Source: a phage
Length of the DNA stretch: 64,000 bases
Sequence record: OZ346228.1
Strand: one strand, 5' to 3'
Position 1 is the first letter of the stretch, and each line of letters starts with the position of its first letter. Shown piece after piece: positions 8,835-62,897 of this stretch. The notes below the pieces were generated by a model, which was not told the origin of the DNA, did no database searches, and saw only the letters and a program-made list of their open reading frames with translations. Position numbers and translations under genes: made by a program.

Positions 8835-9029
8835 ATGAGAAACAAGAAAGAGCTTTACTCTGGTGAGTGGATCAACGATCAACAGGTGGGAGAGGTAACC
8901 TGCTTCCGATGTTTTACCAGGTACAATCTTAAAACTGCACCAAAAAGTGTTCCAAAGACTGACGGTTATTACATAAAAGAACCTCATTGCCCAAAATGTA
9001 AATGCCGATTATACTGGAGTAACCTGTAA
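8835..9029 (+). CDS. small Cys-rich (zinc-ribbon-like) protein
   Basis: CFRC...CPKCKC; RBS gggagag. Confidence 0.45.
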   Translation: MRNKKELYSGEWINDQQVGEVTCFRCFTRYNLKTAPKSVPKTDGYYIKEPHCPKCKCRLYWSNL

Positions 9030-9092
9030 AAGATTGACATCTGAAAACTGCAGTGTATAATATATGCATAAACTAACAGAGAGTGATGTATT

Positions 9093-9284
9093 ATGGTAAT
9101 TTTTAACCGGGATGGTATCATAGTTAGACAGCACCCGTTCCTTGAATACTATCAAATTGAGCAATGGTGCTACGGGGATTGCAGTCACTCCTATGGGCAA
9201 AGTTGGGGATATCGTACAGTTTTTGAATCCACAGACCTTGACAAAGTAAAACAGAAAGTTTTAGAACTTCTTAACAACAAGTGA
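9093..9284 (+). CDS. hypothetical protein
   Basis: 63 aa ORF; weak RBS. Confidence 0.4.
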   Translation: MVIFNRDGIIVRQHPFLEYYQIEQWCYGDCSHSYGQSWGYRTVFESTDLDKVKQKVLELLNNK

Positions 9285-9294
9285 GTATCGTGCC

Positions 9295-9627
9295 ATGGTA
9301 ACATTGGAAAGACGTAAAGCTATTGCCGCCACACTGGCAGACATCTTTTGGGATTGTAATTTAAAATCTACCCGAAATTGTGGTGCATCTGTAGATGTAT
9401 TATTCCCACGGCCTACTATTGTTGCAATGGGCAACCTGCTCGATGTGGTATATGGAGCATGGGACAAGGAAGGTGGATTCTATATCTGGCAACCTGACTA
9501 CGGGACTTGGAAAGAGGTTAGTGGTTCTTCGGACTTCACTCCTGCAGTGGCTAAAATGGATGGCTGGAAAATCTATGTCGGTAACGACATGGAACTGAAA
9601 GGCGAAATTGTTTACTGGTTACCTTAA
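9295..9627 (+). CDS. hypothetical protein
   Basis: 110 aa ORF; weak RBS. Confidence 0.4.
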   Translation: MVTLERRKAIAATLADIFWDCNLKSTRNCGASVDVLFPRPTIVAMGNLLDVVYGAWDKEGGFYIWQPDYGTWKEVSGSSDFTPAVAKMDGWKIYVGNDMELKGEIVYWLP

Positions 9628-9648
9628 GAAAGTCCAGGAGATAAAGTT

Positions 9649-9894
9649 ATGAACAAAGGGTGGACATTTGTAGACGGCGTTAAAAACATGCCTCTAGGAA
9701 AGTATATTGTAGCCATGGCAGATGAGAATGGCAAGGTTGATTTCGGAGTTTGCGAGGTTGTTCTTGCAGGATCTGGTGACTATGCTCACAAAACTGGGAT
9801 AATTAACGGTCATTTCTACTTTGATTACAACCCTGTTGTGGCGTATATGGCTATGCCAGAGTTCGAGCTCCCAAAGGAAGGTGCAGATGTTTAA
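9649..9894 (+). CDS. hypothetical protein
   Basis: RBS caggagat. Confidence 0.55.
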   Translation: MNKGWTFVDGVKNMPLGKYIVAMADENGKVDFGVCEVVLAGSGDYAHKTGIINGHFYFDYNPVVAYMAMPEFELPKEGADV

Positions 9895-10084
9895 GCTTAA
9901 ATCTGCATGGAACATCGCTGTGGGGGACGAGATCCGTATCCCAGGTGGAAAGACCATTATGAAAATATCTCGTATCGAGTACGAAGGTGATCGTGTATTT
10001 CATATCTTTGCAGAAGATGGTCGAGAGATTTATATACAGGCAGGATCTCACATCTATATTCGTAAGAAAGGGGAGGACAAATGA
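9888..10084 (+). CDS. hypothetical protein
   Basis: RBS aaggaaggtg before ATG (MFKLKS...). Confidence 0.45.
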
Positions 10085-10410
10085 CAGAGATCATCATTTC
10101 AACTGCAGGGTATGTATTCCTGACAATCATTGCACTGGCTATTTTGGTGACAGTGTATGGGTTTGTTATCCTTCCTATCCTTGAGACATTTAGTTTGTGT
10201 CGGTGTTGGAGAAAAGCTTACGGTCCACAACCATGGAAGGACTGGCCCCACCTGGTGCGCTTAGCGTTCTCTTATGCTTACGATCACTCCAGTAGTGCAT
10301 GCATAACCGGATACCACGCCCACAACTGGAGCTGGGAAGGGTTGAGGAAATGGAATGTTACAAAGACCATACCTCTGCGCATGTACAAACCTAAAAACAA
10401 AGACAACTGA
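10081..10410 (+). CDS. hypothetical membrane protein
   Basis: RBS aaggggagga; hydrophobic segment IIISTAGYVFLTIIALAILVTVYGFVILPIL. Confidence 0.55.
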   Translation: MTEIIISTAGYVFLTIIALAILVTVYGFVILPILETFSLCRCWRKAYGPQPWKDWPHLVRLAFSYAYDHSSSACITGYHAHNWSWEGLRKWNVTKTIPLRMYKPKNKDN

Positions 10411-10990
10411 TACTTGAAAATTCCTGGCATATCAAGTATAAGGGGGATTTCTAAAATGGATTTCCTCCTTTTGATATTTCACCGGGCTGGATATTTTAAA
10501 ATTCTTAGAAAATCAGAAAATGGATCGAAAACTAAAATGGATTTTTCAGAGTAGGCGCGACAAGCTGAATAACTCATCCTATCGTTTGCACCATATTCCA
10601 GGCCACCATTATAGATTTCCCACACATGCTAACCTCTCCCTACTAGAACTTCCTCCACTTACCCTTGACCTTCTATGGTAACAATCTAACCGCTATCTTG
10701 AAGTTGCGGTGCAGCTTTCCAGGTACTCGATCTACTTTTCATTTCAGGGCTTGGATTTTCTGAAAATTTTTCTCGATAAATTTCTCAGTACTCGATCTGT
10801 TTTTCGTTTTCTGAATCGGATTTTCTGGAAATCGTTCCGGCTCTCAACCTGAAATTTTTGGGGACGAAATCGATTTTTCGTTTTCAGAAATGGATTTTTA
10901 AAATTTCTATATGGGAATATTTTAGTGGATACTGTTTTATAGGAAATTGTTACGGAGGGTAATTAGCATGCTAATTAAATTTATTAAATG
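10411..10990. repeat. iteron-like non-coding tract with several short direct repeat families
   Basis: aaaatggattt (about 4 copies), ggattttctg (2), gtactcgatct (2), cgatttttcgttttc (2); no credible ORF. Confidence 0.6.
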
Positions 10991-11009
10991 CGAGGAGTTC
11001 TCATTTAGA

Positions 11010-11240
11010 ATTTTGAATGATAATCATTCTCGTTTGCAGAATAACGGGCAGGCCCGGTGATTGTCTCCCGGCCCCTGTTGCCCCGGCTTGTTATTATAGT
11101 ATCACACAGGACAAAGAAAGCAAGGACTTTTTGCATAAATTTTTAAATGATAATGATAACCGTTCTCATTTTATGCAGCGCCCATCCCCGGTGGTTGTCT
11201 CCCCCGTCACCGGTGCCTGCCGTCCTTTCGATATGTATAT
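11010..11240 (+). promoter_or_regulatory. two Fur-box-like sequences, each heading a conserved GC-rich element
   Basis: gaatgataatcattctc at 11015-11031 and aaatgataatgataacc at about 11145-11161 resemble the Fur box GATAATGATAATCATTATC; each followed by tgcag... and a GGTGRTTGTCTCCC hairpin-like element. Confidence 0.45.
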
Positions 11241-11594
11241 TGTGCCACCTGGCGGGGCCGCTGTCAACACTTTTCAAAAAATTTTTCTAACCTGGTGCGC
11301 TAACCGTTGCAACCTGGCGGGGCCAGCCTGGCAGGACCTAACTGACCAGGTAGGGGAGAATGAAGGCTTGTAAACCTGGTGGGCCTATGCTACAGGATAG
11401 GTAACAATTGAAGAGGAGGTACAAAAATGATATGATCCCCCTGGAAAATGTAGCTATTAATGACTCTGAGGCTATCGCCCTGGTTGAAAAGGCTATGGCG
11501 GGAGCGTTGGAACATAAAGAAGAGTACGAAAATGGTGGTTAACCTGGCGGGGGCGGCAGGTGGATTCTATCATAAAAATAATTTAAAATAGTAG

Positions 11595-11623
11595 TTGACA
11601 ACAAGGTTAATCATGGTATTATT
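11595..11623 (+). promoter_or_regulatory. sigma70-type promoter
   Basis: TTGACA at 11595-11600, 17 nt spacer, -10-like ATTATT. Confidence 0.5.
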
Positions 11624-11672
11624 ACCCTACAAGGTGAACAACACCGCACTAACCAGTAAAGAGGATAAATTT

Positions 11673-11870
11673 ATGAACGCATACGGGATCAAAGTACGTC
11701 GCAACACTCGCCAGGTGGTCACCAATCAAGTGATTTGCCGGGTGGATGTAACCATCAACAACGGGCAAGGCCTTTATAAATTTCGTCGCGGTCATAGCTA
11801 TACCCTGCAACAGCTTAATCGTTGCGCCCTGACAAAAGGTCAGATCAACCACTGGTTTAATAAAAAATAA
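11673..11870 (+). CDS. hypothetical protein
   Basis: RBS aaagaggataaa before ATG; promoter upstream. Confidence 0.5.
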   Translation: MNAYGIKVRRNTRQVVTNQVICRVDVTINNGQGLYKFRRGHSYTLQQLNRCALTKGQINHWFNKK

Positions 11871-11873
11871 GTA

Positions 11874-11902
11874 TTGACATACAGTCAGACACCAAATACA
11901 CT
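11874..11902 (+). promoter_or_regulatory. sigma70-type promoter
   Basis: TTGACA with -10-like TACACT about 17 nt downstream. Confidence 0.5.
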
Positions 11903-11934
11903 AAAAGCACAAAAGACACTAAGAGGATAAAATC

Positions 11935-12120
11935 ATGAAAACCACTACCTTTAATTTTGATAATGCAGACTTTTCTTTTTCTGATGTCAAGAACTGCCGC
12001 CGTGATCGTGGATTTTACAAGGCTTATAATCTGGTGGGCCTGGACGATGACAATAATTTGCACGAAGTAGCTGAGATCCAGCTTGACAGATTGGACGGGA
12101 AAGTACTAAAAACTTATTGA
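11935..12120 (+). CDS. hypothetical protein
   Basis: RBS aagaggataaaa. Confidence 0.5.
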   Translation: MKTTTFNFDNADFSFSDVKNCRRDRGFYKAYNLVGLDDDNNLHEVAEIQLDRLDGKVLKTY

Positions 12121-12121
12121 G

Positions 12122-12167
12122 TTTATTTTTAGATGGCCTTGACACCAGGGCCATCAATAAAGTAAAC
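12122..12167 (+). repeat. repeated promoter/palindrome element, copy 1
   Basis: tttatttttagatggccttgacaccagggccatcaataaagtaaac; inverted repeat GATGGCC...GGCCATC enclosing TTGACA; directly follows a stop codon. Confidence 0.7.
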
Positions 12168-12320
12168 TAACCACAGTTGAGCGGAAAAGGAGGCTTAAAG
12201 ATGAGCACTACACGCCAGCACACAAAGGTAACCATCATCGTTTGCATCATTGGGTACATCCTGGCGCAAATGTTGATGGGTAGCGCCAACGGTGTCGCAA
12301 AATTTTTCTTAAACTTTTAA

Positions 12321-12348
12321 TTGACAAGCTAACTTAAATCGATATAAT
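12321..12348 (+). promoter_or_regulatory. sigma70-type promoter with AT-rich upstream tract
   Basis: TTGACA, 16 nt spacer, TATAAT. Confidence 0.7.
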
Positions 12349-12399
12349 AAGCACATAAACGGGAAAACTTCCCAGAACACACAAAAGGAGAAAAACACC

Positions 12400-12741
12400 A
12401 TGACTACTATGACCGCCTCAGAAAAAGCTATGCAGATCGCTGAACTGAAAAAACAGATCGCAGACCTTGAGAATAAGATCGATAACTTTGAAATCGACGA
12501 GGACAAGTACGACGAAAACTATGATGAATGGTTAGACGAGATCTACGGCGAAATTATGATCGGAAACATTTCTTTTCTTCCGTCGCGTATCCTCAAGGAG
12601 CTAGATCCTATCGCTTACCGCTGCGGATTTAGCGACTACATCGACAGCCTGGATATTGAGGACGATGAAGAATACCAGGAATTACAGACAGAGTTAGAAG
12701 AAGCAAAAGAAGAGCTTGCGGAGCTGGAAGAAAACGAGTAA
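12400..12741 (+). CDS. hypothetical acidic coiled-coil protein
   Basis: RBS aaaaggagaaaaa; promoter upstream. Confidence 0.6.
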   Translation: MTTMTASEKAMQIAELKKQIADLENKIDNFEIDEDKYDENYDEWLDEIYGEIMIGNISFLPSRILKELDPIAYRCGFSDYIDSLDIEDDEEYQELQTELEEAKEELAELEENE

Positions 12742-12742
12742 G

Positions 12743-12788
12743 CTTATTTTTAGATGGCCTTGACACCAGGGCCATCAATAAAGTAAAC
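12743..12788 (+). repeat. repeated promoter/palindrome element, copy 2
   Basis: Identical core to 12122-12167, immediately after a stop codon. Confidence 0.7.
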
Positions 12789-12830
12789 TTTATACTGTTA
12801 ACACTGAACTAATGCATAGGAGTTAAAACC

Positions 12831-13076
12831 ATGGCAGCACTAATCACCAAATATTATGCCCCTACCAACACCAAAAGCGCCCGTATCATGGTAAAAGGCT
12901 TCGGACGTAAAAAGGTGTACACCTGGGATTATGCCTTAGACACGGAAGACAACTACACCAACGCAATGACCGATTTTATTAATGAACTAAATAAGCAGAT
13001 CTTGACAAGTTATAAAGTGACCGATATTGCTTATATAGGTGAAGGCGGGATCTGTTTTGTAGGCATTGTGAAATAG
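12831..13076 (+). CDS. hypothetical protein
   Basis: RBS ataggagtt. Confidence 0.55.
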   Translation: MAALITKYYAPTNTKSARIMVKGFGRKKVYTWDYALDTEDNYTNAMTDFINELNKQILTSYKVTDIAYIGEGGICFVGIVK

Positions 13077-18399: not shown

Positions 18400-19150
18400 C
18401 AACATTTTTCGTAAACAGCTCGAAATTATAACGGTGAGTTATAATAAACAGAGAAATCTTTAGTCGTCTAATGTTTACTGTACATTACTATACTGACTGG
18501 AATCATTAGATGACTAAGAGAAAGATAAGAAATCATTAACAATGCAATTGTTTTATTCGTAACAATAAGGCAACTATGCAAACGGATGGCATGGCGCGAC
18601 GGAGTCGCGACATAATATAAAAGCAGTAACCATCACCCCCGTGATAGTTTGTCTGCAAACTATTAATCAGATCATAGTTGCCTTGTATTTAGTTAATCAT
18701 GACATAACAAGCAAGGCAACTATAGATCTGCTAATAGTTGCCCTGCTTTTATATTATGTCATAGATTATTAGCCTGTTAATTGTTAGTCAGTCAAATCAA
18801 CAACGTTATCATTTCAGTCTTTATTGTTGTTGATCGTTATTGTTATCATGCAAACGAATGGCATGGCTTATCATTTTTGAGTAAACAATCTATACGTGAA
18901 CAGTGAGGCATGCAATAGTAAGGGCGGGAATAATGAGAGTGTAAACTGTCAGGCATGTCAATTATATCAATCGTGTCAGTTATGTCACCATTATGTCAGA
19001 CAAGTTTTTCTCCTCTTTGTCAAGTGCTGCATGAAAAATTTACAATCTTGTATGGTAGCATTTTTGCGGCCCTGTTTACATTCAGTATTGTATGTATAAT
19101 CCTTGTTGTGTGGGCGTTTAGACGTCTAGACGGTCAGAAGTCTGCAGGTT
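18400..19150. repeat. palindrome- and repeat-dense non-coding region between convergent transcription blocks (candidate origin or packaging/regulatory region)
   Basis: 18 bp inverted repeat gacataatataaaagcag / ctgcttttatattatgtc; aaggcaactat / atagttgcctt inverted repeats; direct repeat atgcaaacgRatggcatggc (2 copies); hairpins gcgcgac-gga-gtcgcg and atagtttg-tctgc-aaactat. Confidence 0.55.
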
Positions 19151-20435
19151 AATATCTAATCTATCGGCTGCTAACTATATCCCACACAAATAGTAAGAAA
19201 TATAATTGTTATGTGCGTAAACAGTAACTCATGTTATCAATCCCTGTATGTATCGCCAGTGGTGCGCATAATGGGTATTATGTTAAATTGCCCGTAATGA
19301 TAATGGTTCTCACAATGATAGGTATTCTCATTCCCCCACACAAAATAGATTGCAAATGTTGTGCCACTATGTGAACGGCCTCACCTATTAATTTGCCTCA
19401 CTGCCTCGATATTTGAGAATTATCATAAGAATGAGAAGTATTCCCATTTCGTCCGCCTGGCAGCACTCCAGTCGCTACGGCTCAGAACAGGGCAGAATTG
19501 TGTCCATTCAGATATTTCTGTCTGGCTCTTCAGGTCTGTGTGGGAAAAGTCCACCTCTCTGGCGGGGCATGGGGTCATGACGGGAAAATTGCAGGTCAAT
19601 TAAAAAATTTACGTGGTGTATGAAGCGCTCTTCAGGTAAGGCATGTATTATGGGATGAAACCCTCTTCAGGCAATGATATTTGTGGGTGTGATATTTGCT
19701 GGAAAGCCAGATATGACGGGACTCCCGGCGGGGCAGGGGTAGTACAGACAGGGGAAATATGGAGGATGTGGTTAGGTGAATTGATCAGACAGGTAGAGTA
19801 TGGAATATGTTACAGGTATGTTAAATAGGGCGGCTGAATATCTGTAGGATTTGTGTGTAAAATCAAAGACTTAAGTGGTGTTGTGGTATTTTCTATAAAT
19901 AATTCAAGTTTAATAGGTAATATTTGTCTCTATTCGCTTTGTGTGGTAAACAGATTCAGATGAGATTGGTTTACAAGCGTATACATAATATACAAATTAA
20001 AGATACAAGAAACCCCCCTCCCCCTTCGGCTACCATTCACCTTTTCCTCTGACTGGTACTTAAACACTTATTCAGACTCTTCAGGTTATCACCCATATAT
20101 CATATGGCAGTGACTGGTGTCCTCCGGCCCCTCTTTCGTCACCCGTCCGCTTCGCCATGCTAATGCCATAGCCAATGGTTCGGTTGTTCACCCTGTTCAC
20201 TCAGGTGTATCTCCATACCCCTTCAAAACGAAGAGAACAGAAAACCCGAATTACTCGGTAAAAGAAAAGAGAAGAACTTAATTTTATCAGGATAGGCAAG
20301 AATGTCAAGGCATGACTGCTCACTAAACAAGCAAACAGTCATGTGTGGGAGGTAAGTGATTGTGGTGGTAGGAAATTTAGTTGAAAGATGTGTTATAGGT
20401 GCTTCCAGCACTTTAGCCGGGCAGCTAATTGTGTG

Positions 20436-59196: not shown

Positions 59197-59547
59197 ATGA
59201 AAGATGGGGATAAGCTGCTATATCTTAAAGTCCCCCTTGAAATACTATCTATGTCAAAAGTTTTGAATGACACAACTGGGGAGGTTGTTGTTCTTGACTT
59301 GTATGACAAGATCGTATACTGCTACCTGCACAACTGGTATAAGCTTGGAGGAAATTCACGCTTCACACCAAGCACAAGGAAAATTGCAGCAGATGTTGGG
59401 ATAAAGAAAACAAAAGCAGCAGCGTGCGTTAAAACTTTAGAATGTGCAGGAGTGGTTGAAACATCCACACAAGGGAGAGGTAAAAGATGCACATTTTCCA
59501 AAGTTTTGCCACCAGAAGAAGTTATTCGGATGTCAACAACTGGTTAG
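59197..59547 (+). CDS. putative DNA-binding regulator (winged-helix-like), tentative
   Basis: HTH-like segment STRKIAADVGIKKTKAAACVKTLECAGVV; followed by palindromic operator array. Confidence 0.4.
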   Translation: MKDGDKLLYLKVPLEILSMSKVLNDTTGEVVVLDLYDKIVYCYLHNWYKLGGNSRFTPSTRKIAADVGIKKTKAAACVKTLECAGVVETSTQGRGKRCTFSKVLPPEEVIRMSTTG

Positions 59548-59619
59548 ACCAGTAAAAACTTAAATATCTGTACTATAAGGATTCGTATGTTTTATGTTCG
59601 CCATGGAACGGATACTATT

Positions 59620-59705
59620 AACTGTCCGTGATACGGACACTACTGTCCGTCACGCGGACACATCTGCCCGTAATACGGACACTAACTGTCCGTGATACGG
59701 ACACA
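59620..59705. promoter_or_regulatory. four tandem palindromic operator-like sites
   Basis: GTCCGTgatACGGAC (59624-59638), GTCCGTcacgCGGAC, GCCCGTaatACGGAC, GTCCGTgatACGGAC (59688-59702), centre-to-centre about 21 bp. Confidence 0.6.
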
Positions 59706-59825
59706 TAAAGAATATAACTAAAATAACTAAATAATAAAAAATAAAAGATCTAGTACTTATGGTACTAAGTACATATACTTAACTTATGTAGAATATACTA
59801 GATCCTAAGTACCATGTTTTAAATT

Positions 59826-60110
59826 TATTACTTACTATGGGCAGTGTCGGCCCTTCATTGGCACTCGCCTACGAGGGGGCGAGATGCCGGGCCTCCTTGG
59901 CGCACACAATAACAGAAGTTCATACATGCAGGTCTGTTAACATGTGTGGGAGCGAAGCGATAGCGCAGGCCAAAGGCCGAGCACTGATGTGGACCACCGA
60001 CGAAAGCTTGCCAGCGCCGTAAGGAGTCGGTTGAGAGTCTCCCGCGCGAGCTTGGATGAAGTTTATGTGTGGAAACTGACAAGAAGGCCCCTAAATCGCT
60101 CCACAGCTAT
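59826..60110. other. GC-rich non-coding island, candidate structured RNA
   Basis: Abrupt rise in GC relative to flanking AT-rich DNA; hairpins such as cgcc-tacgaggg-ggcg; no convincing ORF or RBS. Confidence 0.35.
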
Positions 60111-62084: not shown

Positions 62085-62159
62085 GCCCTGTTAGCTTAGT
62101 GGATAAAGCAGCGGCCTTCTAAGCCGTTGACACTGGTTCGAGTCCAGTACGGGGTGCCA
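62085..62159 (+). tRNA. tRNA-Arg (anticodon TCT)
   Basis: Manual fold: D stem GCTT/AAGC, anticodon loop CTTCTAA, T loop TTCGAGT, 3' CCA encoded; acceptor stem has two G-U pairs. Confidence 0.7.
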
Positions 62160-62163
62160 AATT

Positions 62164-62250
62164 GGGGAGTTATCCCGTAGAGGTAGCGGTGTAGACTGTA
62201 AATCTATTGTCATTGCGACTCGGGTGGTTCGACTCCACCACTCCCCACCA
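62164..62250 (+). tRNA. tRNA-Tyr (anticodon GTA), long variable arm
   Basis: Acceptor GGGGAGT/ACTCCCC, anticodon loop CTGTAAA, T loop TTCGACT, CCA encoded. Confidence 0.8.
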
Positions 62251-62364
62251 AATTTATATTTTTAGATGCATAAATAATACAGATAATGGCATTGATATTT
62301 ATCGTCGTTTATACTAGTCACTAACTGCTCGAAAATCAGTGTCATTATCAGTATTATTTATAAA

Positions 62365-62455
62365 GGAGGGTAGGGAGCAATGGTGCTCAATCGGTCTTGA
62401 AAACCGTCCCGTTGAGGATGACTCGATGATGGTTCGATTCCATTACTCTCCGCCA
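62365..62455 (+). tRNA. tRNA-Ser (anticodon TGA), long variable arm
   Basis: Acceptor GGAGGGT/ACTCTCC, anticodon loop CTTGAAA, T loop TTCGATT, CCA encoded. Confidence 0.7.
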
Positions 62456-62553
62456 CATTGTTGACCTTGTAATTAAGCGAAAGTCGGAAGCAGAACCGGA
62501 TTATCAAATGTTACAGTCGTCATCGCCGACTAGCAACATGGTCAACATACTGA

Positions 62554-62652
62554 GCTAGGTAAGCCCTTTGGCAAGGGCGAGGATTTTTAATCCTGAAAAT
62601 AGACGAGGTAGTCGTTGAATACATAGGTGGTTCGATTCCATCACCTAGCACC
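62554..62652 (+). tRNA. atypical tRNA-like gene; anticodon loop TTTTTAA (Lys-TTT-like), about 28 nt extra between anticodon and T arms; may be a pseudo-tRNA
   Basis: Acceptor GCTAGGT/ACCTAGC, D arm GCCC-TTTGGCAA-GGGC, T loop TTCGATT; variable region far longer than class I; CCA not fully encoded. Confidence 0.35.
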
Positions 62653-62657
62653 TTTTT

Positions 62658-62733
62658 GCTGATGTAGCACAATCGGTAGTGCAATTGATTTGTAATCAAT
62701 AGGTTGTAGGTTCAAGTCCTGCCATCAGCACCA
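62658..62733 (+). tRNA. tRNA-Thr (anticodon TGT)
   Basis: Acceptor GCTGATG/CATCAGC, anticodon stem-loop ATTGA-TTTGTAA-TCAAT, T loop TTCAAGT, CCA encoded. Confidence 0.8.
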
Positions 62734-62734
62734 A

Positions 62735-62809
62735 GGCCCTGTAGCTGGAAGGTTCAAGCAAGCGACTCATAATCGCCAGACGGTGGTTCAATTCCACCCA
62801 GGGCCACCA
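62735..62809 (+). tRNA. tRNA-Met/Ile2-type (anticodon CAT)
   Basis: Acceptor GGCCCTG/CAGGGCC, anticodon loop CTCATAA, T loop TTCAATT, CCA encoded. Confidence 0.8.
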
Positions 62810-62820
62810 AATAGTAAATA

Positions 62821-62897
62821 CTCCGCGTAGCTCAGCTTGGTAGAGCGCCTGATTTGGGATCAGGAGGTCGAGTGTTCGAATCACTCCGTGGAGACCA
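62821..62897 (+). tRNA. tRNA-Pro (anticodon TGG)
   Basis: C1-G72 acceptor, D stem GCTC/GAGC, anticodon stem-loop CCTGA-TTTGGGA-TCAGG, T loop TTCGAAT, CCA encoded. Confidence 0.8.

Follow-up and report, generated by a model that had tools for sequence, protein, structure and literature searches.

The sequence considered here raises the question of what a phage keeps in some 580 base pairs (bp) of DNA that contain no evident gene and are crowded with short direct repeats. The DNA in question is the tract at positions 10411–10990 of a 64,000-nucleotide stretch of the phage record OZ346228.1 (the window, to which all coordinates refer unless another genome is named), and the initial annotation had taken it for an iteron-like element of the early region, of the kind found at replication origins, partition sites, or protein-titration sites. 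The region is 97–99% identical to Escherichia phages EdH4, FFH2, and JES2013 and to about 115 further Vequintavirus records, and the window is that of a Vequintavirus phage (an rV5-like myovirus). In the EdH4 genome, the tract lies inside a long one-directional transcription unit that has PolA and the helicase–primase 8–15 kb upstream, and consensus sigma-70 promoters are dense around it (21 observed versus 9.3 expected, two of them perfect TTGACA-16-TATAAT), in agreement with an early-region setting. The answer suggested by the present analysis is one that we hold tentatively and rate somewhat short of an even chance, namely that the tract may be a protein-binding upstream control module of an iron-gated (Fur) promoter locus.

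The stop codon of a 109-amino-acid upstream open reading frame (ORF) ends at 10410, and the ORF-free stretch reaches about 11426, i.e., some 1 kb, beyond the limit of 10990 first given to it. In the annotations of related phages, several annotators left a gap of about 1015 bp here, and others called small ORFs that are mutually inconsistent. The six-frame comparison of nine vequintaviruses shows that the stop-free frames shift between the phages as a result of indels. A coding role was therefore rejected, no ORF being conserved among the nine, and the earlier statement that the tract has no credible ORF was borne out. A 32-amino-acid ORF with a good ribosome-binding site may nevertheless exist at 10456–10554; its C-terminus is altered by a 1-bp indel in the relatives. 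The genome map of rV5 has a gray "non-coding" box "containing no ORFs" (Kropinski et al. 2013, PMC3606486), which is probably the same region, the match resting on close relatives of rV5. That paper gives no anatomy, conservation, or function for the box, and beyond it we found no account in the literature searched of the anatomy of the locus, its conservation, or its Fur boxes.

The repeats exceed chance, contrary to the possibility, raised with the initial annotation, that they might be no better than those of shuffled sequence. The scores of direct repeats with word lengths of 7–11 were matched by only 0–1 of 1000 dinucleotide-preserving shuffles, with 15 direct repeats observed at a word length of 10 against a shuffled mean of 0.70, and among 580-bp windows the tract belongs to the top ~1%. 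The individual words claimed earlier were found to differ in quality. GGATTTTCTG (10753, 10818) and GTACTCGATCT (10723, 10788) each occur twice, as had been stated, while AAAATGGATTT, said to occur about four times, has two exact copies (10453, 10534) and reaches about four only when degenerate copies are counted; the shorter word AATGGATTT has three, with an additional copy at 10889. CGATTTTTCGTTTTC, claimed twice, has a single exact copy (10871) and one degenerate copy, CTGTTTTTCGTTTTC, at about 10797. All the counted words are absent from the rest of the window, and they are fragments of a larger arrangement, consisting of three degenerate tandem units of 65–74 bp, referred to as A, B, and C, and a separate upstream cluster at 10445–10550.

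A blastn search with the tract itself gives matches confined to Vequintavirus. When the loci are read, a three-unit array is found directly upstream of the Fur-box element described below in each genus of the Vequintavirinae, the taxa being Vequintavirus, Seunavirus, Mydovirus, Certrevirus, Henunavirus, Serratia phage Kashira, and four uncultivated contigs. An alignment of 23 units, drawn from eight lineages, needs no gap across its 38 columns and has the consensus GTTCTCGATCGATTTTTCAATTTCnAAATCGTATTTT and the pattern G-T-W-CTCGATC-N3-TTTTTC-N12-G-K-ATTTT. Four columns of this core (C4, A8, T17, and G31) never vary, and conservation reaches at least 90% in eight more. The core is followed by a variable 25–40 bp, which in most lineages ends with a T-run/A-run palindrome (ATTTTTC...GAAAAAT) or an A6T6 tract. 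With a profile hidden Markov model of the core, three copies on the same strand are obtained at the locus of the window and at those of eight vequintaviruses, PVP-SE1, CR3, Mydo, BIS47, Hena1, Kashira, and the four IMG/VR (uncultivated) contigs. The rest of the window and the remainder of the EdH4 genome (~70 kb) give no further match; in EC152 there are two units and a partial one where its record begins.

The copies are 60–80% alike, and in the eight lineages their spacing of 63–78 bp is neither constant nor helically phased. By eye, units A, B, and C each resemble their counterparts in other genera; if this correspondence holds, the triplication would predate the genera. The flanking genes vary among genera while the array is kept, and the locus accordingly acts like a module of its own.

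Within the genus, the units evolve more slowly (nucleotide diversity, pi, of 0.025–0.11) than the third codon positions of the neighboring genes (0.10–0.19), and so does the near-invariant stretch 10495–10550 (pi = 0.040), which indicates purifying selection. The spacer between the upstream cluster and the array evolves at least as fast as the third codon positions. GATATTT(G) and A-rich periodic stretches like those of the cluster are also seen by eye in CR3-like phages, Kashira, Hena1, and the IMG/VR relatives. The A/T-tract periodicity near 10.5 bp across 10711–10920 is above the 99th percentile of the window and points to intrinsic DNA curvature, and 10890–10989, with 76% A+T, ranks second in AT content among the 100-bp segments of the window. 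The linker that follows the array looks shorter and less AT-rich in PVP-SE1, EC152, and Mydo, as judged by eye from the printed sequences. Because the repeats beat chance, purifying selection is evident, and the array is conserved across genera, a cis-acting protein-binding site is a reasonable reading of the tract. Conservation in primary sequence with fixed internal spacing likewise resembles that of a protein-binding site on duplex DNA.

The element next to the array suggests what such a site might serve. In every genus, the array stands upstream of the first of a set of 19-bp 9-1-9 palindromes, the distance being about 90 bp in the window and, by eye, smaller in the others. The palindromes are present in 1–4 copies in the relatives, tandem copies being exactly 29 bp apart. 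The phage palindrome equals the Fur-box consensus derived for Xanthomonas, AATGAgAATcATTctCATT (PMC1790865), which was the consensus used here and which the boxes of the window match at 17–18 of 19 positions; it also resembles the Fur boxes of Acinetobacter (PMC3055841). Sites within three mismatches of the consensus number four in the window, against 0.07 expected. The −35 and −10 hexamers around the box nearest the GC-rich block are conserved in eight lineages. On the strength of the consensus palindrome and its overlap with promoter hexamers, we consider the boxes candidate Fur-regulated promoter sites.

The second box of the window belongs to the second copy of a duplicated unit of about 135 bp, which joins a Fur box to a GC-rich hairpin whose loop reads GGTG(A/G)TTGTCTCC. 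This short hairpin after the promoter has a conserved loop, GGTGWTTGTCT, and a stem that by eye only varies in a seemingly compensatory way (CCGG/CCGG, GGGG/CCCC, GCG/CGC); the fold energy of the Fur-box/hairpin region is unremarkable. For the leftward promoter that faces these units, a TTGACA or TTGCAA, a 17-bp spacer, and a −10-like hexamer are seen by eye at a comparable place in the relatives. By blastn, the element 11013–11125 is found in 264 phage records from several subfamilies, including PVP-SE1, CR3, Mydo, BIS47, Hena1, Kashira, EC152, and phAPEC8-like phages. At least 120 IMG/VR contigs whose flanks are unrelated have an exact copy of the palindrome AATGAKAATCATTCTCRTYT, where a rough estimate gives less than one chance match. 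Among the matches listed, it often comes directly after promoter-like sequence (…TAAAATCGGCGC…) and sometimes in 2–4 tandem copies. Fur-type operators seem to be widespread in phage genomes.

The fast-evolving spacer upstream of the array has a composition of its own. With 38 C against 8 G, the stretch 10571–10670 is the most strongly biased in the first 20 kb; the GC skew is −0.39 to −0.59 in the spacer and falls as low as −0.65. This bias is kept in all seven vequintaviruses tested, despite the high diversity of the spacer, and in Serratia phage Kashira. The composition is that expected at a Rho-dependent terminator, i.e., an untranslated C-rich, G-poor stretch of at least ~80 nucleotides (nt), and in Vequintavirus the spacer may plausibly serve as a Rho-dependent stop for the early operon that precedes it. 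The same rut (Rho utilization)-like composition is missing in PVP-SE1, Mydo, Hena1, and CR3, where the array is nevertheless conserved. The inverted repeat at the stop codon of the upstream ORF was ruled out as a canonical terminator, as no U-run follows it and it is not among the terminator-like calls.

According to the mechanism that we propose, the tract would be the upstream half of a conserved non-coding control locus of about 1 kb in the early region. The units would be duplex-DNA sites for a sequence-specific protein of either phage or host, and the three sites, when bound on curved, AT-rich DNA, would assemble into a nucleoprotein complex that adjoins the Fur-box promoter(s) on their upstream side and sets their activity or insulates them. 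The downstream output would be a short GC-rich hairpin leader or a small RNA, followed by small early genes, with expression depending on the phage programme and on the iron status of the host. In Vequintavirus, the C-rich spacer would in addition allow Rho to end transcripts that run in from the strong early promoters before it. What the analysis shows is the repeats with their conservation and copy number, their place beside Fur-consensus palindromes in promoter-like sequence, and the absence of coding or RNA-structure signal; that a protein binds, which protein it is, how it connects to the promoter, and that Rho terminates there are steps that we infer. The regulatory interpretation is preferred mainly because of the Phapecoctaviruses, which keep the Fur boxes and the GC-rich blocks and have a different triple AT-rich repeat where the array would be. 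This arrangement suggests that the promoter core is older and that the array is a lineage-specific accessory.

A number of points weigh against this proposal. No binding protein was found, the flanking ORFs being without a DNA-binding domain. Unit C of PVP-SE1 starts (2389 in that genome) about 115 bp upstream of the Fur box (2504), which is far for direct activation, so that wrapping or looping has to be assumed, and the units lack helical phasing. The promoter and its regulation by Fur are themselves predictions from sequence, and no terminator for a small RNA was found. The conservation across genera is unusually strong at the nucleotide level for a mere upstream regulatory region and would suit an essential cis-acting site, such as an origin, equally well, and the replication genes are part of the same transcription unit.

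It is also conceivable, although we regard it as doubtful, that the tract, the Fur boxes, and the GC-rich blocks together make up an undescribed subfamily-wide locus that couples the iron status of the host, through Fur, to an essential early step, either the transcription-activated firing of an origin or a switch of the early programme, with the array as docking platform for a phage protein. If this were true, the at least 120 IMG/VR contigs with the palindrome would make Fur-gating a common phage strategy. The locus is the largest conserved non-coding element in rV5-like genomes and is apparently older than the genera. The rV5-like phages are widely applied against E. coli O157, Salmonella, Klebsiella, and Cronobacter. 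Should early expression or replication be gated by iron through this locus, how well the phages perform would vary with iron availability, which is low both in the gut and in the infected host, with a bearing on phage therapy; if the tract is an origin, it would offer a handle for engineering rV5-like phages and for plasmid-based amplification. Either way, the array defines a putative protein-binding site. The coordinates of the features are collected in Table 1.

Table 1. Features of the proposed control locus and of the 59-kb site, in window coordinates
Feature	Position	Strand	Description
AT-rich inverted repeat CTGATACTTGA / TCAAGTATAAG	10407–10442	+	spans stop codon of upstream ORF
Upstream A-rich short-repeat cluster	10445–10550	+	GATATTT twice (10473, 10491), AAAATGGAT three times (10453, 10517, 10534)
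Fast-evolving spacer, C-rich, G-poor	10551–10712	+	pi = 0.255
Repeat unit A	10713–10777	+	core 10723–10760 = GTACTCGATCTACTTTTCATTTCAGGGCTTGGATTTTC; then palindrome ATTTTC-T-GAAAAT and T-run
Repeat unit B	10778–10851	+	core 10788–10825 = GTACTCGATCTGTTTTTCGTTTTCTGAATCGGATTTTC; best cross-genus profile match, 28.1 bits
Repeat unit C	10852–10925	+	core 10863–10898 = GGACGAAATCGATTTTTCGTTTTCAGAAATGGATTT; most conserved unit in genus, pi = 0.025
AT-rich linker, array to first Fur box	10926–11012	.	variable in genus, pi = 0.137
Sigma-70-like promoter TTGAAT-18-CAGAAT	11013–11042	+	hexamers 11013–11018 and 11037–11042; Fur box 1 in spacer
Candidate Fur box 1, AATGATAATCATTCTCGTT	11016–11034	+	1 mismatch to AATGAKAATCATTCTCATT
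Candidate Fur box 2, AATGATAACCGTTCTCATT	11152–11170	+	2 mismatches to AATGAKAATCATTCTCATT
Leftward promoter TTGACA-17-CACAAT with TG extension	11239–11267	−	converges on Fur-box units
116-amino-acid helix-turn-helix (HTH) ORF	59197–59547		phrog_12838 "replication initiation protein", E = 5e-80; HTH_36/DUF6945

The alternative that survives best, rather unlikely in our judgment, is that the tract is a primary or secondary replication origin. The units and short repeats would then bind an initiator or host factors, the AT-rich DNA would melt, and the convergent promoters would activate or prime replication, much as at the promoter-dependent origins of phages with T7-type helicase–primase replisomes. 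Several repeat families within a conserved non-coding locus of ~1 kb, the curved and AT-rich DNA, the convergent promoters that flank the locus, and the transcription unit shared with PolA and the helicase–primase are all consistent with such a role. Two of the units also start with GATCTnnTTTTC, which resembles the oriC 13-mer consensus. The authors of the rV5 genome paper could not locate an origin by skew analysis (PMC3606486).

The specific picture of an iteron origin is not supported, in view of the unphased spacing and of the lack of both an adjacent initiator gene and a DnaA or IHF consensus. Iteron origins have at least three repeats of ~17–22 bp at helical spacing, whereas the core found here is 38 bp long and has no constant phase. 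None of the flanking ORFs has a Rep or HTH match. In the search for DNA-binding motifs that had been proposed for the tract, Fur boxes were found next to it; neither the DnaA consensus (TTWTNCACA) nor that of IHF (WATCAANNNNTTR) is present in the tract of the window, and in the relatives they are sporadic only. The DNA downstream of the + strand promoter, which is GC-rich and not easily unwound, further disfavors an origin, as would the apparent absence, by eye, of the AT-rich linker in other genera. Fur boxes, moreover, are to our knowledge not an origin component.

A textbook layout exists elsewhere in the window. The HTH ORF near 59.2 kb is followed by four tandem 21–22-bp repeats, TAACTGTCCGTGATACGGACAC, each with the palindrome GTCCGT-N4-ACGGAC, and these by the most AT-rich 100 bp of the window (59701–59800, 81% A+T). 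Judged by its sequence, the region 59197–59835, at a strand-switch point, is a candidate for a better origin-like (or operator-like) arrangement than the tract. The HTH protein is found by tblastn (E limit 1e-5) only in Vequintavirus-type records, whereas the array is subfamily-wide, and annotators more often name the protein a transcriptional regulator. The tract stays an origin candidate, at lower odds.

Two further observations were made in this part of the window. Between the AT-rich region and the next gene there is a G+C-rich stretch of ~260 bp (59840–60100) without a convincing ORF, which could be a structured RNA and has no Rfam match at the gathering threshold. In the transfer RNA (tRNA) cluster at 62085–62897, ARAGORN calls a 99-nt tRNA of undetermined type with a 4-base anticodon at 62554–62652 (Rfam, 35.5 bits), which may have an intron or be a pseudo-tRNA.

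A role at the RNA level is, in our view, quite unlikely. It would involve a read-through transcript with a rut-like stretch and three U-rich hairpin modules that acts as a terminator or pause insulator or as a decoy RNA. The tract is probably transcribed, since the upstream ORF has no terminator after it; the C-over-G bias of the spacer is kept in the vequintaviruses, each unit has inverted repeats followed by T-runs, and there is a precedent for a repeat non-coding RNA in the rV5-like phage phiTE (PMC3475682). On the other hand, the folding of the array is no better than that of shuffles on either strand (z = −1.38 and +0.22), and the core dyad CGATC...GATCG pairs in 68.8% of cells compared to 66.3% in shuffles and shows no covariation, with only three cells changed on both sides. 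The unit hairpins (−1 to −12 kcal/mol) are weak and mostly A:U. Terminator-like sites are not enriched over 9000–13000 (3 found versus 3.3 expected), and the sole such call within the tract, at 10854–10891 in unit C, is weak. The rut-like composition is missing in the four phages named above, which keep the array. No Rfam match, ToxI included, was obtained for the locus of the window (E up to 10) or for the loci of six relatives, and no similarity to E. coli chromosomes or plasmids was seen. The pseudo-ToxI of phiTE is at a different locus, and the divergence of the units is unlike that of antitoxin repeats.

Several narrower candidates are not supported or were rejected along with these results. 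An intrinsic terminator array would need stable G+C-rich hairpins directly before a U-tract, which were not seen beyond the one weak call; a structured non-coding RNA is not supported, as both covariation and an unusually stable fold are lacking; homology to pseudo-ToxI fails on the different location; and ARAGORN finds no tRNA-like relics in the tract. Host mimicry was rejected because there is no match in 5,426 E. coli genomes and the sole plasmid match is a mislabelled phage genome. In this connection, the PLSDB "plasmid" CP057073.1 (137,565 bp) is a vequintavirus genome and probably mislabelled, and so, probably, are 16–18 GenBank "Campylobacter phage" records (MG0656xx) that are 95–99% identical to E. 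coli vequintaviruses.

Less likely again, and improbable to our mind, is some other DNA-level site, such as a headful packaging (pac) recognition region, in which the two repeat clusters would enclose a variable zone of cleavage, a site resembling a centromere, or a sink for a nucleoid protein of the H-NS type. Two conserved repeat modules around a variable spacer would fit the first of these, as would the relatives, whose genomes are terminally redundant and circularly permuted (PMC3475682). GATC in the unit cores could be read together with the adenine methylase encoded by the phage, although the units of Hena1 are without GATC. Curved, AT-rich DNA is again compatible, and TCGATAAATT at 10772–10781 corresponds to an H-NS high-affinity motif. 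Two linear records start or end in the locus, that of EC152 inside unit A and that of phiWec189 (LC739538.1) inside Fur box 1; these ends are equally explained, and probably so, by assembly breaks at repeats. Against such sites, the tract is at ~12 kb and the terminase at ~90–92 kb of the 136-kb EdH4 record, i.e., tens of kb apart either way. A scan of ten ORFs, eight of them close to the tract and two at 58–60 kb, showed no parA/parB-type genes, and the phage is virulent.

That the units are decayed duplications in a dispensable spacer, with no function of their own, is very improbable: the central spacer does evolve at or above the synonymous rate and the area is annotated inconsistently, but arrays of three units, their 38-bp core free of gaps, have been kept in genera with differing flanking genes, and the units vary less within the genus than third codon positions do.

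Two other interpretations of the array were discarded. A CRISPR-like mini-array with a period of 63–78 bp was rejected because its "repeats" are only 60–80% alike and most of its "spacers" share the A/T-tract palindrome, and a phage-wide promoter class was rejected because the core is found genome-wide only at this locus and by eye misfits sigma-70 spacing. The word TGATATTTG is not enriched as a genome-wide motif (23 found versus 27 expected).

The surroundings of the locus show some features of their own. Genes for HNH homing endonucleases lie close upstream of it in PVP-SE1 (1393–1980) and Hena1 (226–792) and not in other genera. Between the Fur-box units and the next gene (11243–11554) there are 3–5 copies resembling AACCTGGCGGGGCC, and about 40–50 bp of this region are deleted in FV3, YP-6, and Mangalyan. 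In the first small downstream gene (11427–11542), the window is without 7 bp (AAAGGTA) that follow the ATG in eight relatives, so that a stop comes early (ATG ATA TGA); probably the gene is shorter here and starts at 11431. The non-Vequintavirus genera have a second conserved GC-rich block (CTACCGGCGATCCACCTTCC...GCCCCGCCTTTTCGCCGTGGGGTGGCG), without Rfam match. Further downstream, past these blocks, they have a small conserved gene, encoded on the other strand, that is absent from the window and falls into two families, MENxKVITSETMVTL... and M..T...LM..LGWQGGTVHQVA.ATGLKV. A second ORF-poor region of the window, 18900–20100 at the end of the + strand unit, contains Fur-like boxes at 19314 and 19430, another near 19297 by eye, and two exact copies of TGATATTTG 15 bp apart (19675, 19690).

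It is instructive to compare the locus with known systems. With iteron-type origins (lambda ori, P1 oriR, and iteron plasmids), the tract shares several direct repeats in non-coding DNA with AT-rich, curved DNA nearby, and GATC is found inside the T-rich repeats of oriC and P1 oriR as it is in the units of the tract. It differs from them in the period of 63–78 bp, the 38-bp core, and the 60–80% identity of its copies, iterons being phased repeats of 17–22 bp, and it has Fur boxes and a promoter where an origin would place its unwinding element. Centromeres of the sopC type consist of tandem ~43-bp units with an inverted repeat, which the units of the tract resemble in being tens of bp long with a dyad core; unlike sopC, the tract has only three degenerate units, in a lytic phage and with no partition genes seen nearby. 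The pseudo-ToxI of phiTE, which mimics a type III antitoxin, is likewise an intergenic, non-coding tandem repeat in the same phage group. Its kin, the type III antitoxins, have near-identical repeats of ~34–45 nt with a host or Rfam match, the ToxI repeats being 36 nt long and resembling host toxIN, whereas the units of the tract are 65–74 bp long, 70–74% alike, and without such matches.

A further parallel is that with Fur-repressed promoters, in which the box overlaps the −35/−10 region; the palindromes of the window likewise sit in a sigma-70-like spacer, and they stand in tandem, as do those at strongly regulated iron genes. The boxes of the window differ in that their setting is the early region of a phage that is virulent, in having no gene for iron uptake downstream, and, as far as the sequence indicates, in being preceded by a conserved three-unit array, which would set this locus apart from the Fur promoters described so far.

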